From a virus (taxonomy: Duplodnaviria > Heunggongvirae > Uroviricota > Caudoviricetes), in IMG/VR virus record IMGVR_UViG_2737471822_000004, positions 1 through 21,415 of that record: DNA of 21,415 nt; one strand, given 5' to 3'. Of this stretch, positions 3,715-21,415 are shown one piece after another. Each line of letters opens with the position of its first letter. Within the stretch, counting starts at the first letter, position 1. The translations under genes and the position numbers were made by a program. The notes beneath the pieces were generated by a model. That model saw only the letters and a program-made list of their open reading frames with translations, had not been told where the DNA came from and made no database searches.

Positions 3715-3802
3715 ACGGGCGCTTGCGGTTATTCAGACGTGGCTATGAAAGCCAGCCAGATAAAAATGCCCTCTGTTTCAGTCTGCTTTATGTCCCTGAT
3801 GC

Positions 3803-3991: not shown

Positions 3992-4025
3992 TGTTACCCT
4001 TAATAAATAAGACTCACGCAAAGCC

Positions 4026-7359: not shown

Positions 7360-7390
7360 CGTGAATTACTCCGTTTTCAGCGGTATTTTG

Positions 7391-7750
7391 TCAGAGAAAC
7401 TTTGAATAGTGACCGTCGTCAGGCTCAGCAGAACGCCGTATGGTACGCTCCCGCCAGCGGATAAATAGCACAGACGGATGCAGTGTCAGCGGGCCGGAAC
7501 CACTACTGCCTGCAGGAGCTGGTGCAGGCTTAAAGAGCGGTACATCAAACAGGCGCGTATACCGCTGTTCAAACCATGCCAGAGGGCAGGAAGAAAGCTG
7601 GTTGTCGCTGTCATGACGTATCAGCACTTCACAGCTGAATTCAGGATTAACCAGCGCCACAGAGGGCGAGGCTTCTATTAATCGGATAATCGTGACCGTC
7701 CAGCCACGTTCATGCTGCCAGCGTTCGCCGGGGTGCGGATAATTACGCAT
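7391..7750 (-). CDS. Hypothetical protein (119 aa from the RBS-supported ATG; the ORF extends to 7780)
   Basis: GGAGGTG 5 nt upstream of the ATG at 7750. Overlaps the end of the upstream small ORF by 8 nt. Confidence 0.5.
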   Translation of the reverse strand: MRNYPHPGERWQHERGWTVTIIRLIEASPSVALVNPEFSCEVLIRHDSDNQLSSCPLAWFEQRYTRLFDVPLFKPAPAPAGSSGSGPLTLHPSVLFIRWRERTIRRSAEPDDGHYSKFL

Positions 7751-7919
7751 GTTCACCTCCGCAGGGAATGCGCCCGGCAAAGCTCAGTACATAGTCCGGG
7801 GCAAGTCTGCGCCGCGCTGATCGTTCGTTATCTGCGGTGATCCTTAACATCACAGGACGGGCATTGCGTTGACTGCGGTTGATCGCCGCAAATAACCAGG
7901 TACACTTCTGTTTAGCCAT
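7743..7919 (-). CDS. Hypothetical small protein (58 aa), first gene of the replication operon
   Basis: GAGGT 8 nt upstream of the ATG at 7919. The longer 76-aa ORF lacks an RBS at its first ATG. Confidence 0.4.
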   Translation of the reverse strand: MAKQKCTWLFAAINRSQRNARPVMLRITADNERSARRRLAPDYVLSFAGRIPCGGEHA

Positions 7920-8003
7920 CTTCGTTACCTCATATAACGTGCTGGTCAGACGCCTCGGTGCTGCTGCAAACACTCCGGGGCGTTGCTATTTTGTTTTTCT
8001 GTG

Positions 8004-8047
8004 TGTAATGTGTCATTACACATAAATACATTACAATGGGTGTAATT
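8004..8047. promoter_or_regulatory. Divergent promoter/operator region with GTAATG-type palindromes
   Basis: TGTAATG-tgt-CATTACA perfect palindrome at 8004-8020, further CATTACA (8029-8035) and TGTAATT (8041-8047) half-sites overlapping the start of the plus-strand regulator gene. Confidence 0.45.
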
Positions 8048-8230
8048 GACGTGTCAACACACAAAAATGAAAGACGTGGGAATCCGCCATTCCAGTTCCG
8101 ACTTGACCCTGAACTGCGTGAACTGATGGAACAAGCACAACAGCAGGATGGCGATGAATCGCTAGCGGCTTGGATCAAGCGCATTCTACGCAAAGAGTTA
8201 CAAAGCCGAGGTTTAGAACCAAAGAATTGA
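8036..8230 (+). CDS. Small ribbon-helix-helix-like transcriptional regulator (64 aa), the only plus-strand gene in the satellite
   Basis: PFQFRLDPELRELMEQ... fits the beta-strand then helix pattern of Arc/CopG/ParD-type RHH proteins. Divergent from the replication operon. No clear SD at the first ATG; the GTG at 8051 is an alternative start. Confidence 0.5.
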   Translation: MGVIDVSTHKNERRGNPPFQFRLDPELRELMEQAQQQDGDESLAAWIKRILRKELQSRGLEPKN

Positions 8231-8240
8231 TTAATACGTT

Positions 8241-8263
8241 GGGGAGGCTTTTTTCTCCCCAGC
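8241..8263. terminator. Hairpin between the converging RHH gene and alpA (possible bidirectional terminator)
   Basis: GGGGAG / CTCCCC stem with a T-rich loop. No strong U-tract on either side, so function is uncertain. Confidence 0.3.
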
Positions 8264-8279
8264 TTTGTTAATATTGTCA

Positions 8280-8495
8280 TTACACTACTTCCTCCAATCC
8301 TGCTGATTGAGCTTTAACCCACTGCCTAATTTCTTGTGCATCGTAAACAGATACCCGTTTTGAAATGCGTATAGATTTGGGAAATTCAGGATTGTTCTTT
8401 TCCCAGCGCCAGAGAGTAACCGTACTTATTTGCAAAAAGTCAGCAGTAGCTCGTGGGCGGGCATGTCCAGTGATAGGATAAGTTTTTAATGTCAT
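8280..8495 (-). CDS. alpA: AlpA-family HTH regulator (71 aa)
   Basis: FLQISTVTLWRWEKNNPEFPKSIRISKRVSVYDAQEIRQWV matches the AlpA/Xis-type winged-helix pattern. Typical position between the integrase and the primase operon. Confidence 0.8.
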   Translation of the reverse strand: MTLKTYPITGHARPRATADFLQISTVTLWRWEKNNPEFPKSIRISKRVSVYDAQEIRQWVKAQSAGLEEVV

Positions 8496-8503
8496 GAAAT
8501 TAC

Positions 8504-8531
8504 CTGCCGTATTATGTAATGAACACGGCAG
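8504..8531 (-). promoter_or_regulatory. Stem-loop in the alpA 5' leader
   Basis: 7-bp stem CTGCCGT / ACGGCAG with a 14-nt loop that contains a GTAATG motif, ending 8 nt upstream of the alpA ATG. Confidence 0.3.
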
Positions 8532-8773
8532 ATACTATGGGGATATCAAAATGCTGTGAAGGTAGTGTAATCAACTCTACCTGTAGATTGTTTCAGTCTA
8601 CCCCTTTTGTTTTAATCCCGCATGATTAACCGCTAATCGTAATTTTCTTAAGATTTCTTGTTCATTAGTGATAAATATTGGAGGTAGCTCTCCTAAATGT
8701 TTAATTATGGCGTTAGTCCACTTTTCAGGACTTATCTCTTTTCTTTCACCACGACATTCGCTTGGGTATTTTG

Positions 8774-9481
8774 CTAATATATATATATGGCTGCATTTAA
8801 TAACCCCTCCCTATTTTTTGCATGATGCTCAGCAGTGTTATTTAATCGCTTGGGGATTTTAGGTTCAGATGAAATTCTTTTCGTAAGTAAACTTGGCATA
8901 GGAATTCCAGTTTTTACTGATTTCCATATTAACTCTAAATCTCTTCGCATGATAAGAAGATCTTCAAATGGAATCTCAATGACCTTATTTCCTTCATATG
9001 AGGCCGTTGCCATCAAAACATTATCTCGTATTTTTACCGGTTTAAGCCTGAATTCATAATCTGGATCTATAGCTAATCCATTTTTTATGTCACTTATCAT
9101 ATCATCGGCGTACCAAATACCACAGGCAAATCCTATAATTTGAAGCCCATTTTCAAAATGTTCAAAGGAATCATCTTTAAGGTCATACCATATTGTTGAA
9201 AATTCCATCTCTAGTGATTGATTAGTTAATACGGGATGAATTAAGTCAATTTCCATTTTCTGATTTTTATTGAGGAAATTAACATTAAATCTAACTGCAA
9301 GTCCATCCGCCTTGAATGCGATATTAAAAGCGCCTATTTCGTATAGATGTAATAAATCATCAATCTCGCATTCTAATAGTCTTGAAGCGCGTTCAAATGA
9401 ACAATATTCTAATGGTGGTATTTTTTTGTCAATCCATAGATTTCCTAAGAATATAGTTTCATTCTCTGTTGAATGCTGCAT
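8774..9481 (-). CDS. Hypothetical protein (235 aa), AT-rich cargo gene between integrase and alpA
   Basis: Long ORF with GAGG 7 nt upstream of ATG, 30 nt downstream of the integrase stop. Lower GC than neighbours. No motif recognised. Confidence 0.6.
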   Translation of the reverse strand: MQHSTENETIFLGNLWIDKKIPPLEYCSFERASRLLECEIDDLLHLYEIGAFNIAFKADGLAVRFNVNFLNKNQKMEIDLIHPVLTNQSLEMEFSTIWYDLKDDSFEHFENGLQIIGFACGIWYADDMISDIKNGLAIDPDYEFRLKPVKIRDNVLMATASYEGNKVIEIPFEDLLIMRRDLELIWKSVKTGIPMPSLLTKRISSEPKIPKRLNNTAEHHAKNREGLLNAAIYIY

Positions 9482-9511
9482 TATGACCTCTGTTTTAAAT
9501 TATAAGAGTAT

Positions 9512-10846
9512 TTAATTGATAATGTTAATACCTGATAAGTCATAAGGAGCATGGAATTCGTCCTTATTTAGTTCCAGATAATTAGACCACCATTGCATCA
9601 TTCTGCGGCGTTCCTGCATGTGCTGCGCAAGATGCACATATGCTGCCCGCACTTCGTTTCTTTCTTGGTGACTCATCTGCCGTTCAACTGCATCGCGTGA
9701 CCAGAGTCCTGATTCGGTCAGTGCAGAGCAGGCCATCGCCCTGAACCCATGCAAGCAAACATCAGTTTGAGTGTCGTAACCCATCGTTCGCAGTGCTTTA
9801 TTAACTGTGTTTTCGCTCATCGGTTTATATGGGTTGCTGTCACCGGGAAAAACCAGCAGATATTCACCACTGATTTTCCTTATATCCTCCAGTACCCCGA
9901 TAGCCTGACTAGATAGCGGGACATAATGAGCAGCCCCCATCTTTGCACCCCGATCTGAGAATTTAACCCCTGCGATCTCTTCACGTTGTCCTGGTATCGT
10001 CCATAGCCCATTTTCAATGTCGATCTCCTCCCATCTGGCATGTCGTAGTTCGCTGGATCGCACAAAAGTGTGCAGGGAAAAGAGAACTGCTAGGCGAGTC
10101 AATGGTCTTCCCGTGTAACTTCTCGTTTTCGCTAACAGTTCAGGTAAACGTTCGAGAGGTAGTGCGGGGCGATGTCGTACTTTGGGGGCCGTAATTGCAC
10201 CTTTTAGATCGTGGGCAGGGTTGTAATCGACAATTCCACGTTGCACGGCATAACGGAAGATGCTCGTCATAGTGGTTTTTACACGGCTCGTTGTGGCACC
10301 AATTCCTTTCTCAGTCATCTCAACCAGCATCGGCATCAAGTCACGGGTTTTGAGCGTATCGATAGGCTTTGAACCGATGGCAGGAAAGAGGTGGTTTTCC
10401 ATTTCTCGGAGAATTTTTTTACGGGTGATCTCTTTCCACTCAGGATGCCCCATCGTTCCACTATGCCACTCTCTGGCAACACTCTCGAACGTGGGGGAAA
10501 TTGGGTCTTCCTTTTTGGGTTTCTTTGCTTCGCGAGGATCACGACCATCGGCTAGTAGTTGCCTGGCTTCATCACGCCGTTTCCGCGCTGTTGCAAGTGA
10601 GACATCTGGGTAGACCCCTAATGCTAATGTCACTTGTTTTCCATCAAAACGATAATTCATACGCCAGTATTTTCCACCAGTCTTTCGTACCAGTAGATAC
10701 AAACTCCCTCCATCGGTAAGTTTGTAATCATTGGTCTTCGGCTTGGCGTTTTCTATCTGTTTGGGGGAAAGCACATTAATGGCCATATCTGTACTCATTT
10801 TGGTAAATTGATGGTATCTGCATATCGAACTGGGGAATACCATCAC
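9512..10846 (-). CDS. Tyrosine recombinase, P4-family integrase (int1); probable true start at 10786 or 10798
   Basis: N-terminal arm-binding domain (KLTDGGSLYLLVRKTGGKYWRMNYRF...VTLALGVYPDVSLATARKRRDEAR) and C-terminal catalytic region (HGFRA...RAAYVH...RRRMMQWW). The canonical N-terminus begins at MAINVLSPK. Confidence 0.9.
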   Translation of the reverse strand: MMVFPSSICRYHQFTKMSTDMAINVLSPKQIENAKPKTNDYKLTDGGSLYLLVRKTGGKYWRMNYRFDGKQVTLALGVYPDVSLATARKRRDEARQLLADGRDPREAKKPKKEDPISPTFESVAREWHSGTMGHPEWKEITRKKILREMENHLFPAIGSKPIDTLKTRDLMPMLVEMTEKGIGATTSRVKTTMTSIFRYAVQRGIVDYNPAHDLKGAITAPKVRHRPALPLERLPELLAKTRSYTGRPLTRLAVLFSLHTFVRSSELRHARWEEIDIENGLWTIPGQREEIAGVKFSDRGAKMGAAHYVPLSSQAIGVLEDIRKISGEYLLVFPGDSNPYKPMSENTVNKALRTMGYDTQTDVCLHGFRAMACSALTESGLWSRDAVERQMSHQERNEVRAAYVHLAQHMQERRRMMQWWSNYLELNKDEFHAPYDLSGINIIN

Positions 10847-11057
10847 TTATACCATCACGAGGTTGTAATGTCATGAAATTAACTGAAATGAAAATCAGGC
10901 CGATTCGGTGATAACTTACTGTTTTTTTAAGTGGTTATGTAATGAAGTGAAATGTAGAGAAAGGTCTTTAAAGTGTCCCTGCAGACATCTACTTGAGGCG
11001 GCAGGGGGTTGATTAGAATGGTGTTTTTTAGATTTGAGAAATATTTTACCCGCTATT
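10847..11057. other. Inter-element junction: candidate att site region, duplicated alpA start segment, and direct repeats
   Basis: Contains a second copy of the 16-mer TAATGTCATGAAATTA that overlaps the alpA start codon (10866-10881 versus 8487-8502), a tRNA 3'-end-like GTGTCCCTGCAG (10963-10974), and a TATTTTACCC direct repeat at 11042-11063. Confidence 0.35.
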
Positions 11058-11258
11058 TTACCCATTCGCGCGGCTTAAGAGCTTATTTTTGAATTCACAA
11101 TGGTCACGATATAACCATCTTGCTCGTCCGTGGATAACTTTGGCTTTAGGCAGGTCGCCGGACTTAATCCGGTCATAGATGAAGGTTTTACCAAAGCCAG
11201 TATCAGCCATGATGAATTTCAAATCAACCAGTGAATCAGGTTGTAGTTCGTGTTGCAT
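11058..11258 (-). CDS. torI: TorI-like excisionase / recombination directionality factor (66 aa, AlpA/Xis-type winged helix)
   Basis: 66-aa protein MQHELQPDSLVDLKFIMADTGFGKTFIYDRIKSGDLPKAKVIHGRARW... with an HTH_17-like pattern. I recall this as the E. coli KplE1 TorI sequence. GGAGA upstream of ATG. Lies at the prophage end opposite the IntS-like integrase. Confidence 0.65.
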   Translation of the reverse strand: MQHELQPDSLVDLKFIMADTGFGKTFIYDRIKSGDLPKAKVIHGRARWLYRDHCEFKNKLLSRANG

Positions 11259-11300
11259 GAGTGCTATCTCCGAATAGGGAATCGAACCTGCAAATCAGGC

Positions 11301-11323
11301 AATAAAAAACCGCATTGATGCGG
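11301..11323 (-). terminator. Rho-independent terminator at the end of the early operon
   Basis: Minus-strand hairpin CCGCA-ucaa-UGCGG followed by UUUUUUAUU, between the 114-aa gene and the torI-like gene. Confidence 0.6.
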
Positions 11324-11382
11324 CAATGGTAGGTCTGGATATCTTGAGAAATGAACGGGCCTCATCGAGTGTGAGGCTGTGG

Positions 11383-11727
11383 TTAGTCCTTGCGTAACTC
11401 GCTAATTCTTCTGTAAGTCTCTGGTGCTTTGTTTCCGTGTATCTTCATTTCAGACTTCAACAGAGCAACGAGAGAATCCCATTCGTTGAGGATGCCTTTG
11501 AATGCCGGAACGCGCTTTGCAACCTTGTCGAATGAATCCCTGATTTCTGGAATCTGCTCGACAAGCGCAACGCATCGCCGGAAGTCGGCTACGTCATGTG
11601 GAGCGCCGAAGTGATGACCATAGATATTCTTTTTCAGTCCACATGCGATTGAGGCAAGAGTTGCGCTACTGATGCCAACATCGCCAGTCGATTGCCATTT
11701 CAAAACCTTCATAGCCAAATCTGACAT
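11383..11727 (-). CDS. Hypothetical prophage protein (114 aa)
   Basis: ORF co-oriented with the early operon. No motif recognised. Confidence 0.5.
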   Translation of the reverse strand: MSDLAMKVLKWQSTGDVGISSATLASIACGLKKNIYGHHFGAPHDVADFRRCVALVEQIPEIRDSFDKVAKRVPAFKGILNEWDSLVALLKSEMKIHGNKAPETYRRISELRKD

Positions 11728-11799
11728 TTCTTGTCTCCATAAAACAAAACTCGCCGTAGCGAGTTCAGATAAAAGAAATCCCCGCGAGTGCGAGGATTG

Positions 11800-12084
11800 T
11801 TATTCATTGCCGATATTCACCTTTATCGCGAACACCTTTACCGGTTTATCGCCGAAGTGCGGATGTGTGATTGTCTTGATTTCATATCCGTCATACGGGA
11901 CGTCAATTCTGCGGCTGGAATCGTCGCGCTTCGGATATCCCTTTGTGATAATCAGGCGGTCATGCTTACGGTTAACGAGGCGCTTTTTCCAGTAGTCATT
12001 ACACAAGCGATACTCTTCCGTTTTCTCCCCGCGAATCATGGCATCGAAGTATTCACCTTTGACGGCAAGTTGCAGGTTAGCCAT
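11800..12084 (-). CDS. ASCH/DUF3850-like small protein (94 aa from the ATG at 12084)
   Basis: MANLQLAVKGEYFDAMIRGEKTEEYR resembles the N-terminal pattern of ASCH/DUF3850 proteins. GGAGGTG 7 nt upstream. TAATG stop/start overlap with the upstream gene. Confidence 0.55.
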   Translation of the reverse strand: MANLQLAVKGEYFDAMIRGEKTEEYRLCNDYWKKRLVNRKHDRLIITKGYPKRDDSSRRIDVPYDGYEIKTITHPHFGDKPVKVFAIKVNIGNE

Positions 12085-12344
12085 TACCGCACCTCCAGTT
12101 TCCATACCGCCTGACCAATCCGGCTGGCATAGGTATCTTTGGATACTGCTCCGTCTTTAGCCAGCTCCATAAGAATTTTGCGCAAATCTGCCGAACGCCA
12201 TTCTTCATCAGGAAATTCCTTCTCCATTGCCAACCGCAGATTCCAGGTTGCTATCGTGAATGGATATTCCCCGCCGAGAGCTTTCTCTTGCAGGGCAGAA
12301 CGGGAACGCATCACCTGCAAAACCTTCTCTTTTACATCCATCAT
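12084..12344 (-). CDS. Hypothetical prophage protein (86 aa)
   Basis: ORF translationally coupled to both neighbours (4-nt overlap with the DUF551 gene, 1-nt overlap with the ASCH-like gene). Confidence 0.5.
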   Translation of the reverse strand: MMDVKEKVLQVMRSRSALQEKALGGEYPFTIATWNLRLAMEKEFPDEEWRSADLRKILMELAKDGAVSKDTYASRIGQAVWKLEVR

Positions 12345-13342
12345 TTTGCCTCCTGCGGCGGTTCTGGTAGTGGCATCCAGTGTGTGACATTGCTAATCAG
12401 ACCATATTCATTAGTTTGAGGATGGTTGCCGTTATCGTCTCCGTATTTAAGACTCTCCATAAAACCATAATGCTTATTCCCATTAACGCTCACAAAGCCG
12501 TAATAAGCAGGTATAACGCCGATCTCACACGTAACCAGCAAAGGAAAACCAGTTCTCCAGTTTAGTTCACCGATTTCAGGCATTCGATCACTACAGCTTA
12601 TCCAACTATCCGGAGTTACCGGAGAGTTGCCCGATAGCGCGTTCTGCAGTCGCTCCAGCTTCACGTATTCCTGAACCCTGTTTCCGTCGCATGCCTGAAG
12701 CCATTGCGCAGCCTTTTGCGCATCAGTGTGAAAGGCACAAGTGCGACCGTCATCAAATTGCATTTCGTAGAGGTCAGCAACTTGTTCAAACTGCGTGTGT
12801 TGTGACTTGTAAGTTTGGCTTACAGGTTCGGCTTCCAGTTCTGCTATGCGCTTCTCTGTGGATTCCAGCGCTGCAACCAATTCGTCTACAGTTCCGGCAG
12901 CTTGCAGTGCGTAATCGGTAATAGCCATCTCATGATCAATTTCAGTACCGTTCTCATTCGTTGAGGTGATAGCAAAATAATCAGAGTCGATTTCGTTATC
13001 AGCTAAGTGGCGTAGCGTATCGGCAACAAGCTGGCCGTTTTCGATTAGCAGCCTCCCAACCGTAAGCGCAATATCCTCGTTCTCCTGGTCGCGGCGTTTT
13101 ATGTATTGCTGGTTTCTTTCCCGTTCATCCAGCAGCGCCAGCACGGTTTCTGGTCCGGTCAGAAATTTGAAGGCGTTGAGCGCATCAATATCCACACCGT
13201 AATCTTTAAGTTCCTGTTCACTTAACAAATCATCATCAGCTGGCAACATTAACAGGCGTTCCATTGCTGGAATTGCACGTTCCGCCGCCTCACGCAGTGC
13301 CTGGTAATTAATTTCGCTCACTGGTTGCCTCCTTTGCGCCAC
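12341..13342 (-). CDS. DUF551-domain phage protein (333 aa), Ea22-like early-region protein
   Basis: C-terminal [10 protein letters not shown]...LLVTCE...YYGF...[12 protein letters not shown] matches the DUF551 pattern common in lambdoid early-left operons. Acidic N-terminal region. Confidence 0.65.
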
Positions 13343-13501
13343 ATCGCATTCAGATATTTGTTTTGATTCACTGATGGAAAAGAATTTCTCTTAAGCAATT
13401 CCTCTCTCGATGGCATTGGCTTTACGCGTTGGCGAATAATCATTTCCGCCGGAAGAATTCCGGGATTGTATGCAAGTCCTCTCATGGTAAATTCCTCTTT
13501 G

Positions 13502-13816
13502 TTAATTTATTCGTATGCCTGTTCTCTCTTCATCGAGTTTTTTTAGCTTGTATCGCATAGCTCTTACTGAATAAATTGAGCGGCAGGTTGCAATTGCTAT
13601 TTCTTCTGCGGAGAACTTACCGAAAAGTGATACTTCGGCTCTTGTCCATCGTCTTCCACGAAGTCGGCTAACAATGTCAGCGCCAATCCTTGTTGCTTTC
13701 GCCATTACTGCTTTTTCAGTCCTTTCCAGTTTTTCAGCGATAACTTCAACTGGCATTGTCGCCGCCACTTCGCGCAAGAAATCGACTTCCCATTTCTCCC
13801 ATGGAGTCTTTTTCAT
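13502..13816 (-). CDS. Hypothetical prophage protein (104 aa)
   Basis: ORF in operon context. Basic C-terminus. No firm family. Confidence 0.45.
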
Positions 13817-13827
13817 AGGCGATACCG

Positions 13828-14316
13828 TTATTTGATAAGAAGTGAAGGTTTCCCAACTTTGAGTTGAGCGCCGGGGATATTTATTCCTGCTTTTAGTTGG
13901 TGCTTGATTGCCAACTTGTCGGCTTTAATTGTCGTTTCGAACTCAACGTATTCAGGAGGAAGGGCGCTTGAGTCGATGATTTCTACAATTTCTGACGGTT
14001 TGCGGATTGTTACCTGGTGAATACCTGCTCGAATATTTTTCTTGCCAACCATTTCAAGCGATGACGCTATATATGATTTGATGCTGTCAATCTTATTTTG
14101 AATTACTGCGGCTCGCTCATTCAGTGACTTTGCCTCTTCCTTGAGGCGTTCAGCATAAGCAGATTCATTTTTAATGACGGAAAGAAGTTGCTCTATTTTA
14201 TCGGTAAATTCTCCTTCCATGCCTTCTATTGTGTCAGCAATCATCTCTGGTTCTAAATCTGAATCCATCAATTTTGCGTATTCATTGGCAATTTCATACA
14301 GTTTGCTCACTGGCAA
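13828..14316 (-). CDS. Sipho_Gp157-like protein (162 aa), frequent partner of RecT/Erf recombinases
   Basis: Coiled-coil N-terminus and C-terminal ...IKADKLAIKHQLKAGINIPGAQL... pattern. Start overlaps the 3' end of recT. Confidence 0.5.
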   Translation of the reverse strand: MPVSKLYEIANEYAKLMDSDLEPEMIADTIEGMEGEFTDKIEQLLSVIKNESAYAERLKEEAKSLNERAAVIQNKIDSIKSYIASSLEMVGKKNIRAGIHQVTIRKPSEIVEIIDSSALPPEYVEFETTIKADKLAIKHQLKAGINIPGAQLKVGKPSLLIK

Positions 14317-15205
14317 CCTCCAGTTTCGCTTTGCATTCTATGTAAATGGCTTGTACGTTCTGCTGTAATTTCATTCCAGATGTCAGGCGATATGCTTCTG
14401 CAAAATATCGCTTCAAATCATCCATGTTTTCTGCCTGAGCCATTTCATCGCAAAGAAGTTGTACTTTATCCATTATTTCCTGCTGGCGTTTCCGTTCATC
14501 TTCGCGGATATCTTCCTCTGATTTGTGCGGCATAACTGGTTCAGTCCACACACCTTCTTCTTCGTTTAGTACGTGAATAGCACTATCAAGACGTGATGCC
14601 TTAGGCCAATACTTGCTTGCACGCTTTACGACCGTCTTTCGCGCCATCTCATTCCAGTGATTTACCCATGGTCCTTTATCGCTGAATGCCGCCTTGCTTG
14701 TTTTCCTTACAGCCTCAATTTCAGCCAGACTCATCTCTTCCGTTAGATAATCACCTGCTGGCGTCTTAACTGTGCAGTAAACGCCAACGATATCACCGCG
14801 ATCACCGAAGGCGTTGTATTTATGGGTTGGTGCTTTATCAAGCCCGTTTGACTCATAGGTATCGTTAGCATGAACAAGTTTTGCCTGACCCCATGAGATA
14901 ACACCAGACTCCATTGCAATATGGAGCAACCCCATATAACTGATATCAAGGCACACCATGCCGTCGCGCGGAACCAGATAAGCCAGTTTGCTAGCCGGGT
15001 TTAAGGTGATGCCGATCGCCGCAACATTGATGATGGCGTTCTGTGCGCTGGTTGGATTTGCCAGTGCCGTTTTAGCCAGGTAATCGTTTTTCTGGAAATA
15101 CTGAATTGCAAACTGGCTTTCCTTAGCCCATGTCACCGTCTGTTCAGTCAATGCTCCGCAGAATAACTGCTCCTGCTGTTTAACGAATTCAACGATATTG
15201 CTCAT
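14294..15205 (-). CDS. recT: RecT-family single-strand annealing recombinase (303 aa)
   Basis: GPWVNHWNEMARKTVVKRASKYWP matches the conserved RecT motif (Rac RecT: GPWVTHWEEMAKKTAIRRLFKYLP). Family-level call. Confidence 0.8.
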   Translation of the reverse strand: MSNIVEFVKQQEQLFCGALTEQTVTWAKESQFAIQYFQKNDYLAKTALANPTSAQNAIINVAAIGITLNPASKLAYLVPRDGMVCLDISYMGLLHIAMESGVISWGQAKLVHANDTYESNGLDKAPTHKYNAFGDRGDIVGVYCTVKTPAGDYLTEEMSLAEIEAVRKTSKAAFSDKGPWVNHWNEMARKTVVKRASKYWPKASRLDSAIHVLNEEEGVWTEPVMPHKSEEDIREDERKRQQEIMDKVQLLCDEMAQAENMDDLKRYFAEAYRLTSGMKLQQNVQAIYIECKAKLEVASEQTV

Positions 15206-15513
15206 GCTGCTTCTCCAAAAATGTGTCTGCGCTTGAATATTGCGAAGGCATATTCAGCCTTAACTCTTTCGGTTATTGCATCCCAGAACCATTCAGCGGC
15301 TTTTTCCTGATAGTTACAGTCATCATCTTCCAGCCAGTCGATAGCGTCCTTAGTGTGTTCATCTGGTTTATATGAGCGAAGCATTTCGCTTATTGGGTCG
15401 CAACGTTTGCAGAGGCGATCAACTTCACTGTTGATTCGTTCGTAATCTTCATCAGTAAAACTTGCGATTATTTGCGATATTTCACGCTTATCATTCAGAG
15501 TCAGAATCATCAT
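15202..15513 (-). CDS. Hypothetical prophage protein (103 aa)
   Basis: ORF with 4-nt overlap to recT. Acidic. No motif recognised. Confidence 0.5.
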   Translation of the reverse strand: MMILTLNDKREISQIIASFTDEDYERINSEVDRLCKRCDPISEMLRSYKPDEHTKDAIDWLEDDDCNYQEKAAEWFWDAITERVKAEYAFAIFKRRHIFGEAA

Positions 15514-15598
15514 CTTTCTCCTGTTCTTTGTGCTGATTGAGCATTTTGTTCATCTGACGAATGAATTCTTCGTCTGACCAGTTATCCGTAAAACTCAT
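15491..15598 (-). CDS. Possible small ORF (35 aa, acidic C-terminus)
   Basis: Below the ORF-track cutoff. Its ATG overlaps the stop of the upstream 56-aa ORF (ATGA) and its 3' end overlaps the 103-aa start. Supported only by coupling geometry. Confidence 0.25.
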   Translation of the reverse strand: MSFTDNWSDEEFIRQMNKMLNQHKEQEKDDDSDSE

Positions 15599-15765
15599 GG
15601 ACGGCCTTGTTGTTTCAAAATATCCCAAAGCTTTTCGAGCAAACTTTTCATTCTTGGTTGTTTAAAGTCTGCTCCGGTTAAAATATTTTTTCGTGAATGC
15701 TGTACCGATAAAATCGGGTTGAAAGGGCGAACCGATGCCGCCCCTGCAATAGCGAACTGTTGCAT
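15595..15765 (-). CDS. Possible small protein (56 aa), leader gene of the early operon
   Basis: AAGGAG 6 nt upstream of the ATG at 15765. The longer 91-aa frame has no RBS at its first ATG. Confidence 0.3.
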   Translation of the reverse strand: MQQFAIAGAASVRPFNPILSVQHSRKNILTGADFKQPRMKSLLEKLWDILKQQGRP

Positions 15766-15825
15766 AGGATGCTCCTTCTGTTTGATTGCATAACGAAAAC
15801 GCCTCGAGTGAAGCGTTATTGGTAT

Positions 15826-15855
15826 GCATATAAAAAGGCCCTCACACTGGAGGGC
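15826..15855 (-). terminator. Rho-independent terminator downstream of the 108/141-aa gene
   Basis: Minus-strand hairpin GCCCTC-cagugu-GAGGGC followed by CUUUUUAUAU. Confidence 0.6.
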
Positions 15856-15961
15856 AAAGAAGACTTCCAATAATCAGAACAAGTCGGCTCCTGTTTAGTT
15901 ACGAGCGACATTGCTCCGTGTATTCACTCGTTGGAATGAATACACAGTGCTTATTCGCAGC

Positions 15962-16288
15962 CTACATAATCATTCCGGTTATTATTACCATTTCAATATC
16001 ACTATCTTTCATAATGATTGGAGTTGAGTTATCAACTTTACTTTTACTCCATTTTCCTGCATCAGTTTTTAACGCTCCACAATAAGAAAGCCAATCATCA
16101 TCACAATGTTCTGGAACACTAATTCTGACAAGAACACGTGATAGTGCTTTTTCGATACTTTCATCACAATTAGCATTTGTGTAATTGCCGTGAGACAATT
16201 TCAAATCGTTAACTTCATCTTCATTGGCATCAAAAATATAGATTTCAGTCGACTCTGGAACATTTTCATAAACCATTAAAACTTTCAT
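15962..16288 (-). CDS. Hypothetical protein (108 aa from the ATG at 16288; the ORF is open to 16387)
   Basis: GGGG 5 nt upstream of the internal ATG (MKVLMVYEN...). Own terminator downstream. AT-rich. Confidence 0.45.
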   Translation of the reverse strand: MKVLMVYENVPESTEIYIFDANEDEVNDLKLSHGNYTNANCDESIEKALSRVLVRISVPEHCDDDWLSYCGALKTDAGKWSKSKVDNSTPIIMKDSDIEMVIITGMIM

Positions 16289-16392
16289 TTTTACCCCATA
16301 TTGTTTATGCCAAAAATAAAGGCCACCATCAGGCAGCCTTTTTGTAAATGTTGCAGGTATCAAGTAAGTAATTAGATGGAGCGCCATAAATT

Positions 16393-18099
16393 ATGAATTC
16401 ATCGTTTGTCGGGTCCATCTCCATCTCTTGGCCTATTGCCATTCTTGCGTCAGTGTCATCAGAGGCGAAGCATAAAACAGCCCCCGTCACCATCCCAGGA
16501 GACATCATTATCGATGCTTCTACTGGAGAATTTACCTTCAATGGCATTGATTATATTTTCCATCCGCTTGGCGCAAAATCAGTAGAGATTATCGGCGGTA
16601 AGTTCACCGCAAATGCATACCACACCCAGCGTCCTCAGGTAATTTTCAATGATTACCCTGATGGGCTGGAGAATTTACCAACGCGCGTGGTGATAAAAGA
16701 TATGCAATGCTTTAACTGCGGTGTTGGCTACATCATGGTTAACTGCCAGGACCCAACAAGCATCCACGTTACGGTTGATAACAACTACTGTAAGACTGAT
16801 GACAACACTGACCAGTATATCTCTGATGCGGGTATGTCAGGTGGGCAGGGTGAGGTATACCCATATCTGATGATTCTTGGTAATACGACAGAATCCGTCG
16901 ATATTGGAACGCCTCGCAAGTCAATGTTCCATGTGACCAATAATACCTTTGATGTTTTTATGCAGAGTGGTCCTAATGCAGATTTGGGTAAAGTTGGTGG
17001 TACTACGATAGGCGGCAATGTTAACGGCAATCTTTTCTGCAACAGGAATACGGAATGTGCATGCGAATTTGACACTTTTACTGGTGGTCTTGAAGTATCT
17101 TTAACATCAAACCGTTTTGTTAACACTGCCATTAAAATGATGTCAATGCAATTTGATAGCAGCACTCGCGTCGGATTAGGTGGTAGATCTTCAATATCGA
17201 ATAACGTATTTCATTTTGAAGAAAATCCGTTAAATGACTTTGCAATATTCTTACGGACATCACTTGTTAGCATATCTAATAATGTTTTTTATTACAAAGG
17301 TGCGAGCATTCCATCAGATCAGAGGATATTTAACTTTATAGCATCACAGGCGCTCAACAATAGTAACAATGGTTTCAACGGAACATGGTGCGCAGGTATT
17401 AGTATCACCGGTAACACAATGCAAATGGTGTTAGACCCTGCCGTAAACACGTCTCTAAGATTGCAATGTATTAACCCGACTGATATGTCAGGAGCGGTTA
17501 TATCGGGTAATTTTATGGCGGGCGGAGTAGGAATGGTGCTTAACGCCAGACCAGAAAGAAACAGAAACGTATGGACAGGTAACTTCATTACGTCAGGGTT
17601 ATTTACGGCAGAAGATATCTGGCGAATGAACTCAGCTTTTGTAGGTTCAGGGAACTACATCGGCAATGGTTATGATAATACGGTTAATGGCATAGCAATG
17701 TTGAGCAAGACTATACCCGCGGTATCAGATGGTTCAAAGATAAGAATTACTCTTGACCAGCAGATATTAACCGGGGCTGCATCTGACCGCTCACTTTACC
17801 TTCTCCACATAAAAGTAACCGGTGGGGTAAAAAACAACTACGCTACATATATCATGTCTTCTGGTGCGCATGACGCAACAGCAAGAGCCGACGCAACTGA
17901 CCTTAAACCCCCTATTGACCAGCGTTTAAACCCAGGAGATACTTCCATTGCAAACCTGCAAAGTTGCTTTAAAGCCGGATACAATGGAAGTGGGTATATT
18001 GTGCTTGAGGCCCTTTCAACATTCAGCGCGGCAAATCAGCCACCAACAAAAATTGAATATGCAATAGTACCATTATCAACAAACTTCCCAACGCTGTAA
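16393..18099 (+). CDS. Parallel beta-helix protein, probable phage tailspike / receptor-binding depolymerase (568 aa)
   Basis: Repetitive Gly/Asn/Thr-rich sequence with recurring ISNNVF / ITGN / ISGNF motifs typical of right-handed beta-helix tailspikes. Adjacent to an O-antigen acyltransferase. No recognisable P22-type head-binding N-terminus. Confidence 0.55.
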   Translation: MNSSFVGSISISWPIAILASVSSEAKHKTAPVTIPGDIIIDASTGEFTFNGIDYIFHPLGAKSVEIIGGKFTANAYHTQRPQVIFNDYPDGLENLPTRVVIKDMQCFNCGVGYIMVNCQDPTSIHVTVDNNYCKTDDNTDQYISDAGMSGGQGEVYPYLMILGNTTESVDIGTPRKSMFHVTNNTFDVFMQSGPNADLGKVGGTTIGGNVNGNLFCNRNTECACEFDTFTGGLEVSLTSNRFVNTAIKMMSMQFDSSTRVGLGGRSSISNNVFHFEENPLNDFAIFLRTSLVSISNNVFYYKGASIPSDQRIFNFIASQALNNSNNGFNGTWCAGISITGNTMQMVLDPAVNTSLRLQCINPTDMSGAVISGNFMAGGVGMVLNARPERNRNVWTGNFITSGLFTAEDIWRMNSAFVGSGNYIGNGYDNTVNGIAMLSKTIPAVSDGSKIRITLDQQILTGAASDRSLYLLHIKVTGGVKNNYATYIMSSGAHDATARADATDLKPPIDQRLNPGDTSIANLQSCFKAGYNGSGYIVLEALSTFSAANQPPTKIEYAIVPLSTNFPTL

Positions 18100-18102
18100 A
18101 TT

Positions 18103-18138
18103 TGTGCGCACTATGAAAAAGTTAAATAGTGCGCACAA
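18103..18138. terminator. Bidirectional terminator between the converging tailspike-like and acyltransferase genes
   Basis: About 10-bp stem built on the self-complementary GTGCGCAC (18104-18111 and 18130-18137), followed on the plus strand by TTATTTATATTA. Confidence 0.55.
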
Positions 18139-18147
18139 TTATTTATA

Positions 18148-20103
18148 TTATATATCGATAATTATATTTCCAAACCCTTCAATTGCCTTTCTTGCTCCAT
18201 ATCTTGATAGATGATACTCATCAGAATACATAACGTCACCTTTGTCAGATACTAGGTTACATCTCCCATTCCTACACATGAAATCATAAGGGTTTATAAA
18301 CTTTATACTTCCGTTATCTGATAGCCATTTGTTTAAATAATTATTGCTATCTAACCTATCACCGCTTTCTGTACTGAAAATACTATCAATGCATTTCTTT
18401 TCAACATATGAAGGGCGACTCACACAAGAAAGACCACCGTCAGAGCCTATTGCTGCCGGGTGGCTTCCAATAACAATTACTTCCTGATTTGTGTACTCTT
18501 GAATATTTTTAATAACGGATGCATTGAATTTCATATAATCATTATTCCCGTTGAACTTATAAATGTTACCATCTTTATCAGATAACATTTCAATGTATCT
18601 AAGCCATGACTGAGCATAAACAAGTGGTATCTTATTATTTTTCGAGTAATCTATCGCTTTGGTTCCAATCTTCACGCCATATACAGAAATCTTGCCTTTT
18701 TCTGTAACGTAAACGCTATTTGATAGATACGCTCCATCAGCGAAGAATGCAACAGCTGATATATTTTTCTTTGCAAGAAACTCACTCATGGCTAATGAAT
18801 ATTGTCTTGCATAACTATCTCCCATGAAGACAAATGATGGTTTTTGTGTTTTATCTCCAAGAACTACCATTTCACCTTGCTTAACCCCAAAGCCTCCGAA
18901 TAAATATTCTTTAAATCCAGGCTTGAGCATTTCCATGTTTTCTTTATAATTTTGTATTCTAAATGCAAATCCGTTGTCTTTTATTGAAGATGAATACGAA
19001 ATCATAACCAATATAGTTAATGATAAAAACAATACTGATTTGTAGCAAAACTCATTTATTTTTATCTTTCTGAATTTATTTTCTATTGCGTTGTACATTA
19101 AGAATCCAACAGCCAGCGAAGATAAAATCAATGATGCTTTCTCGATATCATTTAACTCTCTATATATCCAGTATTTGTAAAACACAATAATAGGCCAGTG
19201 AATTAGATAAACTGAATACGATATCAGGCCTATCGTAACGCTGACCCTGTTATTCACAGCGAAGCCAGCGTATTTTGCATCATGTGAAAGAATGCAAAGC
19301 ATGGCACCCAATACGGGAATCATGGCATGCAAACCAGGGAACTGAGTTGATGATGAGTAAAGCAACGCAGATGATACTATCATCGCAAGTCCCGCAGCCA
19401 TCATAGACTCCTTCATTAGTTCAGATGGTTTTATCCATCGAGAAATGAAGAATGCGAGTCCGCCGAAAGACAACTCAAAAACCCTGAACGGCATCCAGTA
19501 GTATGCTTCAGTTTGCATGTTTATAGTTGCCCACTGAGAGGATGCCAGAGAAGCAATACTAATAATAACCAGAACCCATGGCACAAGGCTCTTTTTTACT
19601 AAATATGCTACTCCGATAATCAGAGGCCATACAAGATAGAACTGCTGTTCAACACCAAGGGACCATGTGTGCAACAATGGATTTATTTCTGATGATGTAT
19701 CGAAATAACCAACGCTTTGTGCAAAAAATATATTTGATGCTGAATACAACGCATATATTGCTGATTTAGATACACTAACAAAATCAGAAGGTGAGTACAG
19801 AATAAAGCACCCAGCAAAAACGGCGATCAGCGTTGCTATAAGAGCCGGGTACAGTCTTGCTATCCTGGCGAACATGAAATTAATGTAACTGAAAGTTCCC
19901 TTCTCAGTTTGATTAAAAATTATTCCAGTTATCAGATAACCAGAAATAACAAAAAATACATCAACGCCAACAAACCCTCCGGGAACACCACTGAACCCTA
20001 CATGGAATATAAGAACTAAAATGACGGCAACAGCACGGAGTCCATCAACTCCTGGCTGGTAATTTTTAGACAATGTTTTGTCAGTCTTCAAAAGAAAGCT
20101 CAT
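18148..20103 (-). CDS. Acyltransferase-3 family O-antigen acyltransferase with C-terminal SGNH domain (OafA/Oac-like, 651 aa)
   Basis: N-terminal GLRAVAVILVLIFH...GGFVGVDVFFVISGYLITG acyltransferase_3 signature, multiple TM segments, and C-terminal FVFMGDSYARQY (GDS motif). AT-rich. Confidence 0.85.
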   Translation of the reverse strand: MSFLLKTDKTLSKNYQPGVDGLRAVAVILVLIFHVGFSGVPGGFVGVDVFFVISGYLITGIIFNQTEKGTFSYINFMFARIARLYPALIATLIAVFAGCFILYSPSDFVSVSKSAIYALYSASNIFFAQSVGYFDTSSEINPLLHTWSLGVEQQFYLVWPLIIGVAYLVKKSLVPWVLVIISIASLASSQWATINMQTEAYYWMPFRVFELSFGGLAFFISRWIKPSELMKESMMAAGLAMIVSSALLYSSSTQFPGLHAMIPVLGAMLCILSHDAKYAGFAVNNRVSVTIGLISYSVYLIHWPIIVFYKYWIYRELNDIEKASLILSSLAVGFLMYNAIENKFRKIKINEFCYKSVLFLSLTILVMISYSSSIKDNGFAFRIQNYKENMEMLKPGFKEYLFGGFGVKQGEMVVLGDKTQKPSFVFMGDSYARQYSLAMSEFLAKKNISAVAFFADGAYLSNSVYVTEKGKISVYGVKIGTKAIDYSKNNKIPLVYAQSWLRYIEMLSDKDGNIYKFNGNNDYMKFNASVIKNIQEYTNQEVIVIGSHPAAIGSDGGLSCVSRPSYVEKKCIDSIFSTESGDRLDSNNYLNKWLSDNGSIKFINPYDFMCRNGRCNLVSDKGDVMYSDEYHLSRYGARKAIEGFGNIIIDI

Positions 20104-20257
20104 TATTCATCCGTATTCATTCTTTTTTGCTGTGCTGATATTAGCACTGACATCGCCACCGATCGACTTTTGAAGTGGTAACTAGGCGAAAACGGGATAC
20201 ACAAAGCTTTGCACTTGATTGCAAGGCGTTGTGCTCTTCGATAGTGGTTAAGGTGGA

Positions 20258-21415
20258 TCACTCTGGCTTTTCATCAAGCCAGTCCGCCCACCATTGCATC
20301 ATTTCTCTGCGCTTATCGAGATACTGAGCATGGTTGTAAATTCCACGTACAGATCCGCCGTTGGCATGTGCCAGTTGCACTTCAATGGCGTCGGCAGGCC
20401 ATTCGTGCTCGTTCATAATCGTGCTGAATTCATGCCTGAATCCGTGACCGCTTTCCAGACCCTCATAGCCGATTTGTTTGATCACAAGCAGTACCGCGTT
20501 CTCGCAGATTGGCTTCTTCTTATCGTTGCGCCCGGCAAAAACAAACTCTGATACTGGTTTGGTGATTGAGCTTAGCGTAGTGAGAAGTTCAACCACCTGG
20601 TCTGACATCGGGACCACATGAATTTTGCGTCCCTTCATCACACTGGCGTCGATGGTGATAATCCTGTTTTCAAAATCTACGTTCTTCCATTGCATGGAAC
20701 GAAGCTCTTTCGTTCTTAGGGCTGTGTAGCGTAAAACTTTGGTCGCAATGAGCGATACGATACTTCCTGAAAATGTTGCAAGTGCTTTGTTGAATGCCGT
20801 GATCTGGTCGGCAGGTAAAAACGGGAAGTTCTTCTTGCGGTATCCCTTCATGGCGTCAGCAAGGTCAGGTGCCGGGTTATATTTAGCCCTACCAGTAACA
20901 ATAGCGTAGCGGAAAACCTCGCCGCATCTTCTGCGGGCTTTGTTGGCTCGCTCCATTGCACCGCGATCTTCAAATCTGCGGATTACTTCCAGCAGTTGCA
21001 TCGGCTCAATATCCTGAATTTCAAGGCCGCCGATGATGGGTAAAATGTCGTCATCAAACATTTTGGCAAGTTCAGTTGCATAGCCTACTGACCAGACTTG
21101 CTTCTTGTGCTCGTACCATTCCTTGTAAATCGCACTAAAGGAATTGTTGTTAGACGAAGCCTTTTTCGCCTTTACCGGATCGATGCCAACCGAGATGTCT
21201 TTCCTCGCAGTCCATGCCTTATCCCTTGCCTCCTGCAAAGTCATTAGCGGATATTTTCCTACGGTCAGGATTTTCTCCTTACCGTCAATCTTGTAGCGAA
21301 GCTGCCATACCTTTTTCCCGGATACAGGGACATAAAGGTACAGGCCATTACCATCGAGAAGGCGGTATGGTTTTTCTTTCGGCTTTGCTGCTTCAATCTG
21401 CTTAACGGTGAGCAT
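20258..21415 (-). CDS. intS: IntS-like tyrosine integrase (385 aa); ATG sits exactly at the window edge
   Basis: MLTVKQIEAAKPKEKPYRLLDGNGLYLYVPVSGKKVWQLRYK... N-terminus and C-terminal HGFRHEF...GIYNHAQYLDKRREMMQWW catalytic region. Recalled as near-identical to E. coli K-12 IntS (CPS-53/KplE1). Upstream region and att are outside the window. Confidence 0.85.
   Translation of the reverse strand: MLTVKQIEAAKPKEKPYRLLDGNGLYLYVPVSGKKVWQLRYKIDGKEKILTVGKYPLMTLQEARDKAWTARKDISVGIDPVKAKKASSNNNSFSAIYKEWYEHKKQVWSVGYATELAKMFDDDILPIIGGLEIQDIEPMQLLEVIRRFEDRGAMERANKARRRCGEVFRYAIVTGRAKYNPAPDLADAMKGYRKKNFPFLPADQITAFNKALATFSGSIVSLIATKVLRYTALRTKELRSMQWKNVDFENRIITIDASVMKGRKIHVVPMSDQVVELLTTLSSITKPVSEFVFAGRNDKKKPICENAVLLVIKQIGYEGLESGHGFRHEFSTIMNEHEWPADAIEVQLAHANGGSVRGIYNHAQYLDKRREMMQWWADWLDEKPE

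Follow-up and report, generated by a model that had tools for sequence, protein, structure and literature searches.

A putative AT3-SGNH O-antigen acetyltransferase gene retained beside an intS-type integrase in a P22-like prophage remnant

The acyltransferase gene and its surroundings

In the window, the 21,415-nucleotide stretch of DNA analyzed here, a single intact open reading frame with an ATG start occupies exactly positions 18148 to 20103 on the minus strand and encodes a protein of 651 residues. Pfam, PHROGs, sequence motifs, and an AlphaFold2 model mark it as an AT3-SGNH acyltransferase gene, putatively an O-antigen O-acetyltransferase carried as lysogenic-conversion cargo. Pfam detected PF01757 (Acyl_transf_3) at residues 18 to 334 (E 3e-31; 109 bits versus a cutoff of 31) and PF19040 (the AT3-fused SGNH domain) at residues 414 to 640 (E 2.8e-25), and the PHROGs family phrog_6705, annotated "O-antigen acetylase," matched residues 12 to 643 (E 6e-141). 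The G+C content of the gene was 36.5%, lower than in the integrase gene (48.1%) and in the window as a whole (45.1%). The gene lies between a tailspike gene and the integration module, is convergent with the tailspike, and has this low G+C content, the combination that characterizes P22-like conversion modules. An earlier note made from the letters of the sequence had described an AT-rich gene with an acyltransferase-3 part and an SGNH part at this position; the reading frame, both domains, and the composition agree with that description, and every part of the note's core claim that could be checked computationally was borne out.

Immediately upstream on the same strand is an intS-type integrase gene of the Sf6/KplE1 family (20258 to 21415, minus strand). 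It encodes a full tyrosine integrase (Pfam Arm-DNA-bind_3, Phage_int_M, and Phage_integrase) that shares 380 of 383 residues (99%) with Sf6 Int, and its 96% DNA identity to K-12 intS upholds the earlier identification of an IntS-like integrase adjoining the acyltransferase. The tRNA gene argW lies just past the window end: on a 100% identical contig (L013), tRNA-Arg(CCU) was found 162 bp upstream of the int start. The gene order argW-intS-yfdG(gtrA)-yfdH(gtrB)-yfdI(gtrS) in MG1655 matches the earlier statement that gtrABS follows intS in K-12. The acyltransferase was likewise correctly placed in the gtrABS slot: in the intergenic region upstream of it (20104 to 20257, minus strand), homology to K-12 CPS-53 that runs from the intS start ends at 20199, 59 bp past the intS stop, and beyond the boundary at 20198/20199 the cargo is unrelated. 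The M9 prophage has the whole intergenic region at 100% identity.

A consensus promoter scan detected no strong sigma-70 consensus on the minus strand upstream of the acyltransferase. By eye, an extended -10-like sequence, TGcTAATAT, was seen about 35 nt before the ATG. With intS directly before it on the same strand, the gene could also be transcribed by read-through from intS. We also looked upstream of the gene for the signature of gtr-type phase variation; the region held a single GATC only and thus gave no evidence of it. At the other end, between the convergent stop codons of the tailspike and the acyltransferase, positions 18104 to 18136 contain an 11-bp perfect inverted repeat (GTGCGCACTAT, an 11-nt loop, and ATAGTGCGCAC). 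The predicted fold forms 13 pairs, with a folding energy of -22.2 kcal/mol for the plus strand and -19.3 kcal/mol for the minus strand, a stability (z about -6) that was matched by none of 200 shuffles. The E62 and M9 prophages have the 48-bp spacer between the two genes at 100% identity, whereas the adjoining tailspike DNA is only 86 to 89% identical. Sf6 has an annotated terminator at the corresponding position, and the repeat is probably a two-way terminator.

A deletion remnant that kept its putative conversion gene

The prophage in the window is a deletion remnant of roughly 10.5 kb at argW. Its far end is marked by an attR core (10973 to 10985, minus strand), a displaced copy of the argW 3' end recognized by its match to argW; the reverse complement, TCTGCAGGGACAC, agrees with the 3' end of argW and with TCTGCAGGGGACACC, the attR/pawZ sequence of K-12, less one G. 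Next to it, Pfam and PHROG matches delineate a surviving early-left operon (11058 to 16387, minus strand) comprising the cIII/kil region, RecT, Gp157, Ead/Ea22-DUF551, and others, which ends in a torI-like excisionase gene of 66 aa (11058-11258, minus strand). Early-left genes with torI at the corresponding end are also present in prophage VCSW5 and in K-12. The AT-rich open reading frames of a neighboring P4-like element had no PADLOC or Pfam matches.

Comparison with VCSW5 and with related tailspikes located the deletion junction in a microhomology patch at 16476 to 16491, where an early-left gene in antisense orientation is joined to the interior of the tailspike. VCSW5 early-left homology runs to 16491 and tailspike homology begins at 16476; the parental sequences at the junction, AACAGCCCACGCACC and AACGGCCCCCGTCACC, share short microhomology. 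An alternative view of the 15962-16387 reading frame, as an N antiterminator with pL abutting the tailspike, was rejected, as VCSW5 puts the junction inside another early-left gene. The N, repressor, replication, lysis, head, and tail genes of intact relatives are absent from the remnant. About 30 kb was lost, reaching from a point upstream of the early-left genes as far as codon 177 of the tailspike, and virions can no longer be made; the remnant is not a complete, inducible P22-like prophage. The origin of the acyltransferase gene in P22-like phages is not in doubt.

The tailspike gene (16393 to 18099, plus strand) is truncated at its 5' end and retains the receptor-binding part only, its homology setting in at codon 178 of a 718-codon gene. 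It begins to align with the full-length tailspikes of E62, M9, and phage swi2 exactly at window position 16476; of the 694 positions of the phrog_29018 profile, none before 153 is matched; and the Pfam Head_binding domain, present in intact relatives, had no match in the 16393-18099 reading frame. The gene lacks its N-terminal 177 codons because the deletion took most of the prophage. The earlier description of a "cognate-looking tailspike" therefore stands as to kinship but not as to integrity, since the missing codons include the head-binding domain. A PDB search with the tailspike fragment returned nothing meaningful, and its enzymatic activity and target are therefore not assignable by homology. 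Among phage records searched by tblastn with the receptor-binding part, only phage swi2, a siphovirus, was recovered.

The acyltransferase gene also occurs in the intact P22-like prophages of E62 (at argW) and M9 (near torT) with an identical layout. The reading frame in the window is 100% identical to the M9 copy, and comparison with the E62 allele gives a dN/dS of 0.12. In other P22-like prophages, homologues sharing 66, 49, and 41% identity fill the corresponding slot, each at a prophage end and convergent with a P22-type tailspike. Across 5,426 genomes, the gene was found in 3, and the contigs known to carry it number about 24 or more; gtrABS-like DNA is common, with some match in 1,209 of these genomes, 364 of which cover 80% or more of the K-12 gtrABS query. 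When the intS-proximal cassette was compared across E. coli, as the earlier note had suggested, the slot held differing cargo: gtrABS, AT3-only acyltransferases of 335 and 399 aa, an annotated O-antigen polymerase, or the AT3-SGNH gene. Identity to M9 (100%) spans the acyltransferase gene and both flanks, including the last 86 bp of intS. A gene and flanks identical to those of a prophage at a different integration site are the trace expected from module exchange; together with the variable cargo, this agrees with the cassette exchange proposed earlier. Remnants that keep int and a conversion gene have also arisen independently in K-12, cM2a, and ZF34.

Motifs, fold, and candidate acceptor

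Mutational work on OafA (Pearson et al. 2020, PMC7448272) showed that the R/K-X10-H motif of TMH1, the GG-F/Y-XGV-D loop motif, and the RXXR motif of TMH3 are essential, as are a conserved loop Ser and the SGNH Ser/Asp/His triad. All motifs are present in the acyltransferase (R23-X10-H34, G42GFVGVD48, F50FVISG55, R80IAR83, S123N124, G428DS430, and D628EYH631), and the OafA-essential ones are invariant across 30 homologues. The triad residues lie in the two expected SGNH blocks, the GDS block I (G428-D429-S430) and the DxxH block V (D628-E-Y-H631). The AlphaFold2 model (pLDDT 88.9) places 11 long helices in the first 374 residues and an alpha/beta domain after them, and the topology suggested by this model is a ten-helix AT3 core, an eleventh helix, a structured linker, and a periplasmic SGNH domain.

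Although a single-sequence PDB search with the protein found nothing, a profile built from 30 sequences had one significant PDB match, 6SE1 (E 1.3e-5), the periplasmic SGNH domain of OafB. The same structure was the best PDB fold match in Foldseek (E 2.7e-6; TM 0.62 on target); the other SGNH fold matches were to the generic GDSL/PatB class only, with weaker E-values. Neither the sequence nor the profile PDB search recovered an OatA structure, and a peptidoglycan OatA-type assignment was rejected, given that similarity is closest elsewhere and that the context is a prophage conversion slot, not a chromosomal cell-wall one. Among characterized proteins, BTP1 GtrC aligns over the full length at 29% identity (E 1e-58) and Sf6 Oac at 29% over about 210 residues. 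These relatives are distant, as none with experimental evidence exceeds 35% identity. Protection from BTP1 requires GtrC, which also suffices for it, and rhamnose O-acetylation has been assigned to the protein (PMC4413052, PMC9558356). The kinship to peptidoglycan or exopolysaccharide enzymes that the earlier note had named as a refuting outcome did not appear in the homology searches, in which the nearest characterized relatives were O-antigen acetylases of phages and prophages.

All three complete E. coli genomes with the acyltransferase gene carry O153/O178-family wzx/wzy, a cluster present in only 16 of 5,426 genomes. M6 and M9 are near-identical strains, so that this 3/3 association represents two independent lineages for the gene, and what strengthens it is only the tailspike family: all six genomes listed with that family are among the 16 with the O153/O178 cluster. 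One of these six, an O178:H19 strain examined closely, has in its argW prophage a tailspike 66% identical in protein to that in the window. For the published structures of O153 and O178, the searchable literature made no mention of O-acetyl groups. From the genomic co-occurrence, the acceptor is likely an O153/O178-type O-antigen.

Taken together, these data make it quite probable that the product of the gene is a two-domain membrane enzyme of the OafA/OafB (GtrC family II) type, an O-acyltransferase that acts on carbohydrate and most likely transfers acetyl, and that the gene serves as conversion cargo between the tailspike and the integrase of a P22-like (Sf6/HK620-type) argW prophage. By analogy with its characterized relatives, we infer that the protein acetylates O-antigen. 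The 10-helix AT3 domain, in which R23, H34, D48, R80, and R83 are the counterparts of essential OafA residues, would take acetyl from cytoplasmic acetyl-CoA and move it across the inner membrane. The eleventh helix and the structured linker would keep the SGNH domain periplasmic, where the Ser430-Asp628-His631 triad would hand the acetyl group to an O-antigen sugar. Tailspikes of the phage family from which the gene came would presumably no longer bind or cut O-antigen modified in this way; the O-epitope would change, and the cell would be protected from superinfection. Since the conversion gene has stayed intact in the remnant, its present role would be that of a fixed host gene.

An active enzyme could instead modify another surface glycan, such as a group 1/4 capsule, enterobacterial common antigen, or the LPS core. 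Slot cargo in P22-like phages can target whatever the tailspike binds; the neuO cargo of CUS-3, for instance, is aimed at the K1 capsule. The PDB search yielded no relative of the tailspike family in the window, and AT3 and AT3-SGNH proteins modify many glycans (PMC9558356). Against this, every genome listed with the tailspike family (6/6) or carrying the gene (3/3) has the one rare O-antigen cluster (16/5,426), the closest characterized relatives and the PHROG family are O-antigen acetylases, and the searches led to a single solved relative, which is the O-antigen enzyme OafB rather than peptidoglycan OatA. We therefore regard a different acceptor glycan as unlikely. A related question concerns the transferred group, because AT3 proteins include succinyltransferases such as OpgC (work cited in PMC9558356). 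The sole NCBIfam match of the protein was likewise to the mycobacterial acyltransferase SucT, but at 131 bits versus a cutoff of 1275 it lies far below threshold and reflects the generic AT3 domain only, and a SucT assignment was rejected. All characterized phage-borne AT3 O-antigen modifiers transfer acetyl (PMC4413052, PMC9558356), and modification of the O-antigen with another acyl group, such as succinyl or propionyl, is accordingly highly improbable.

It is also conceivable that the gene is a silent or inactive passenger of a decaying prophage that contributes nothing to the cell surface. The prophage is defective because about 30 kb has been deleted, and the promoter scan was negative. 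The contigs bearing the remnant are 0 to 3 SNPs apart in 13 kb, so that the deletion is too recent for visible decay either way; they were found by exact protein identity, and broken copies therefore cannot show up among them. However, the reading frame is intact, lacks none of the catalytic residues, and does not differ from the copy of an intact prophage, and read-through from intS on the same strand could serve for expression. Among relatives, conversion genes of this sort are expressed in the lysogen (BTP1 gtrC, PMC4413052), and the independent recurrence of remnants with int and a conversion gene also speaks against a passenger. We judge inactivity very unlikely and favor an expressed O-antigen acetyltransferase.

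A bolder proposal, which we regard as doubtful, is that the gene defines an unrecognized O-acetylated O153/O178 subtype and has been domesticated in one E. coli lineage. The remnant, having kept the integrase, the acetyltransferase, and the catalytic part of the tailspike and lost roughly 30 kb of lytic and structural genes, would then be a fixed host defense against all phages with this tailspike. If so, the defense would cover P22-like prophages of the E62 and M9 type as well as the siphovirus swi2, and the K-12, cM2a, and ZF34 remnants would reflect repeated selection for keeping the conversion gene. More immediately, the acyltransferase is a testable candidate, an uncharacterized AT3-SGNH enzyme tied to an O153/O178-type O-antigen and to one tailspike family, and its gene shows clearly how conversion cargo can outlive the prophage that carried it. 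Because O-antigen acetylation affects phage sensitivity as well as serotype and recognition by antibodies, matching such a gene to its O-antigen aids genome serotyping and phage choice.

Relation to known conversion systems

The acyltransferase is an ordinary, uncharacterized member of a well-known class, and the gene reveals neither a new mechanism nor a new kind of element. What is new here is its association with O153/O178; both the type and the arrangement were already known. Because tailspike/oac/int in Sf6 and tailspike/gtrC/int in BTP1 are canonical, the order of tailspike, acyltransferase, and integrase in the window is expected rather than unusual, and Sf6 and BTP1 are better references for it than K-12. 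K-12 CPS-53/KplE1 has the same integrase family, the same argW site, and conversion genes at the same position downstream of intS, and CPS-53 is also a deletion remnant that kept int, conversion genes, and torI. Its gtrABS genes differ, encoding three proteins for bactoprenol-glucose-dependent glucosylation from unrelated cargo DNA.

The layout is identical in Sf6, in which a plus-strand tailspike, the hairpin, and minus-strand acyltransferase and int genes recur along with the 99% identical integrase and the argW attachment site. The biological role inferred for the acyltransferase is the same as that of Sf6 Oac (OacA), but Oac is an AT3-only protein of 333 aa without an SGNH domain. OafA of Salmonella Typhimurium does share the AT3-SGNH architecture, and the acyltransferase has counterparts of all residues whose mutation abolishes O:5 acetylation; this likeness is by published residues, and OafA was not among the named matches of the protein. 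Unlike the gene in the window, oafA is chromosomal and not in a tailspike-int slot (PMC9558356). OafB of S. Paratyphi A, the source of 6SE1, is the best match by both profile and fold. BTP1 GtrC, of the same OafB/GtrC family II, is likewise an AT3-SGNH fusion, alignable end to end (640 versus 651 aa) with the same essential motifs, and gtrC lies in a P22-like prophage, convergent with the tailspike and beside the integration module. BTP1 differs in retaining a gtrA remnant and in having another integrase, with attP between gtr and int. The acceptors also differ: GtrC acts on rhamnose of the Salmonella O4/O9 antigen, whereas the acyltransferase described here probably acts on an O153/O178-type unit, whose reported composition, Hex2HexNAc2Pent, includes no deoxyhexose.

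Sequence and predicted fold of the acyltransferase

The acyltransferase gene, encoding a putative O-antigen O-acetyltransferase, occupies window positions 18148 to 20103 on the minus strand as a single uninterrupted ORF of 651 codons. Its G+C content is 36.5%, in contrast to 48% in the adjoining integrase gene. Pfam searches assigned residues 18 to 334 to the acyltransferase-3 (AT3) family (E = 3e-31) and residues 414 to 640 to the SGNH domain type found fused to AT3 domains (E = 2.8e-25), so that the coordinates and the domain call of the earlier note were both correct. Almost the whole protein is covered by the PHROGs family phrog_6705, "O-antigen acetylase" (E = 6e-141); RefSeq annotates the gene merely as "acyltransferase family protein." No relative above 35% identity was detected in the deposited phage genomes searched.

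The residues that Salmonella OafA requires to acetylate the O-antigen were established by Pearson et al. 2020 (PMC7448272), and counterparts of every one are present here. OafA R14 and H25 (R/K-X10-H) correspond to R23 and H34, the GG-F/Y-XGV-D loop (F35, D39) to G42GFVGVD48, RXXR (R69, R72) to R80IAR83, S112 to S123, and the SGNH triad (S412, D587, H590) to S430, D628, and H631. These positions were invariant across 30 aligned homologues, down to 34% identity. An AlphaFold2 model built from the homologue alignment was confident (pLDDT 88.9), with eleven long helices preceding an alpha/beta domain. The top solved-structure match of the model was 6SE1, the OafB periplasmic domain, which was also the only significant PDB match of the sequence profile. 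Relative to the E62 allele, dN/dS is 0.12.

The conversion slot beside intS

The integrase gene (20258 to 21415, minus strand) encodes arm-binding, central, and catalytic domains (Pfam). Its product is identical to phage Sf6 Int at 380 of 383 residues, and the gene is 96% identical in DNA to K-12 intS. The gene order in K-12 MG1655 is argW-intS-yfdG-yfdH-yfdI (gtrABS), and homology between the window and K-12 spans the intS start to 59 bp beyond the intS stop, no further; the acyltransferase gene therefore lies in the same slot as gtrABS, as had been proposed. Across E. coli genomes the cargo downstream of intS differs: gtrABS in K-12, a 335-aa AT3-only acyltransferase in the O178:H19 strain 2012C-4431, a 399-aa AT3 protein in cM2a, and a gene annotated as O-antigen polymerase in ZF34. 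By architecture, motifs, fold, and genomic slot, the acyltransferase fits the definitions of an AT3-SGNH O-antigen acetyltransferase and of a P22-like conversion module; it is a new and uncharacterised representative of a well-known type.

A prophage of E. coli M9 has the acyltransferase gene, both of its flanks, and the final 86 bp of intS at 100% identity. There, an 84-bp intS C-terminal fragment (M9 locus L003, 16111 to 16194) directly follows the acyltransferase gene at the end of a P22-like prophage near torT. Because that prophage occupies another integration site, the intS piece is a fossil, the footprint of transfer of a tailspike-acyltransferase module from an argW-type phage. The earlier note's "cassette exchange" is thus a fair description of the module, but the exchange occurred among phages and not in this chromosome. 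Homologues at 66, 49, and 41% identity in E. coli and Salmonella were all convergent with a P22-type tailspike gene at a prophage end, and several adjoined an intS-type integrase gene beside mlaA and yfdC. The 66%-identical AT3-SGNH homologue (L020, E. coli GCA_019859985.1, 7019 to 9862) adjoins a 947-aa tailspike with a P22 head-binding domain and a C-terminal GDSL/SGNH esterase domain, pairing a probable deacetylating tailspike with a probable acetyltransferase.

In the window, the tailspike and acyltransferase stop codons are separated by a 48-bp spacer containing an 11-bp perfect inverted repeat, with predicted folding energies of -22 kcal/mol for one strand and -19 kcal/mol for the other (z about -6). 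The spacer is 100% conserved in M9 and in E. coli E62, whereas the neighbouring tailspike DNA is just 86 to 89% identical.

A deletion-reduced prophage in tandem with a satellite at argW

Positions 8148 to 21415 are 100% identical to E. coli draft contig JUCQ01000001.1 (GCA_000798475.1), and two further assemblies differ by 2 to 3 bases. On this contig, argW, the gene for tRNA-Arg(CCU), is found 162 bp upstream of where the integrase gene starts, and yfdC, mlaA, and fadL come next, in agreement with K-12. Leftward of the acyltransferase gene is a P22-type tailspike-related ORF (16393 to 18099, plus strand), beyond which run the minus-strand early-left genes (cIII/kil region, RecT, Gp157, Ead/Ea22-DUF551), ending with a 66-aa torI-like excisionase gene (11058 to 11258). 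The attR core at 10973 to 10985, TCTGCAGGGACAC, matches the argW 3' end and K-12 attR, TCTGCAGGGGACACC, which are one G longer; the missing G might impair excision.

In intact relatives, the acyltransferase gene is located either at argW (E62, whose P22-like virion module is complete and whose tailspike has 718 aa) or in a P22-like prophage adjoining torT (M9 and M6). Homology of the window to the tailspikes of these strains and of siphovirus swi2 starts exactly at 16476 (codon 178), and the window is homologous to early-left DNA of prophage VCSW5 as far as 16491. The junction is an imperfect 15- to 16-nt patch common to both parental sequences, which indicates an illegitimate deletion; the prophage is a deletion remnant rather than a complete P22-like prophage. 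Removed were N, the repressor region, the replication, lysis, head, and tail genes, and the tailspike head-binding domain. Pfam detected no Head_binding match in the tailspike ORF, though intact relatives have one, and the alignment of the ORF to its PHROG profile begins only at position 153. The tailspike, previously described as cognate-looking, is therefore a relic unable to attach to a virion. Among 24 contigs examined that encode the identical acyltransferase protein, about 19 have the remnant arrangement and about 5 an intact prophage.

The tailspike receptor-binding region (16476 to 18099) is a fine-scale mosaic, 72 to 100% identical to E62 and M9 in 150-bp blocks. Overall, the virulent siphovirus vB_EcoS_swi2 is the closest (95.8%), even though the neighbouring acyltransferase gene is 100% identical to that of M9. 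The module boundary at 16476 is common to all relatives. The neighbouring 141-aa ORF (15962 to 16387, minus strand) is composite: residues 34 to 141 match all of phrog_4658, and residues 1 to 30 match the start of phrog_31828. Since a terminator-like hairpin (10-bp stem plus T run, 16318 to 16341) lies within its 5' part, the true start of the gene is probably close to residue 34. Independent argW remnants in cM2a, ZF34, and K-12 likewise kept intS, a conversion gene, and a portion of the early-left operon and lost the virion genes. In cM2a, a 441-aa ORF lacking a domain match abuts a truncated N gene at the place expected for a truncated tailspike, a close parallel to the window.

Immediately beyond the attR core lies a P4-like satellite (1 to 10846) with genes for delta/Ogr (2055 to 2336), psu (2333 to 2884), a sid-like product (2881 to 3624), an alpha primase-helicase (4026 to 6698), and a 444-aa integrase (9512 to 10846). 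This direct contact makes a tandem array of two integrative elements stacked at argW. Three AT-rich minus-strand ORFs (1 to 705, 722 to 1570, and 8774 to 9481; 234, 282, and 235 aa; 28 to 35% G+C) adjoin psu/delta and the satellite integrase, positions that in P4-like satellites often hold anti-phage cargo; none had a Pfam or PADLOC match.

Likely acceptor and relation to known conversion systems

Of 5426 complete E. coli genomes, only three have the acyltransferase gene: M9 and M6 (100% identity) and E62 (96.7%). The wzx and wzy genes of E62 belong to the O153/O178 family and, used as query, were present in only 16 of the 5426 genomes, M9 and M6 included. Among the matches listed, all six genomes whose match begins in the tailspike receptor-binding part (E62, M9, M6, 2012C-4431, CM185151.1, and BKQWHE) are among these 16. 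The window's tailspike fragment shares 66% protein identity with the tailspike of the O178:H19 strain. M6 and M9 being near-identical strains, the independent count is smaller than the raw one, but the association of gene and tailspike with the O153/O178-type cluster is far beyond chance. These data point to this tailspike family having the O153/O178-type O-antigen as its receptor and, by that link, to the same O-antigen as the acceptor of the acyltransferase. No published O-acetylation in O153 or O178 was found in the searchable literature. That the acceptor is instead some other glycan seems unlikely.

If it works like OafA and OafB, the protein would use its AT3 domain to carry acetyl groups from acetyl-CoA in the cytoplasm through the membrane, and its periplasmic SGNH domain to place them on an O-antigen sugar; transfer of a different acyl group is very improbable. 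The modified O-antigen would block matching tailspikes in binding or cleavage, changing the O-epitope and excluding related phages. A promoter scan upstream of the gene returned no consensus promoter, and putative expression via an extended -10-like sequence or read-through from intS is possible. A silent relic appears decidedly unlikely. In the remnant, an active O-antigen acetyltransferase would be a fixed host trait. What is modestly new is the link to O153/O178-type O-antigen, together with the finding that the gene has survived in a lineage-fixed remnant.

GtrC of phage BTP1, which is both necessary and sufficient to protect against BTP1, is now named OafB and assigned 2/3-O-acetylation of O-antigen rhamnose (PMC4413052; PMC9558356). 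It aligns end to end with the acyltransferase (29% identity, E = 1e-58), and the BTP1 tailspike gene is convergent with gtrC, adjoining the integration module. Phage Sf6 has exactly the same layout as the window, with tailspike (plus strand), terminator, oac (minus strand), oac promoter, and int (minus strand), and with attP and a torI-like gene upstream of int.
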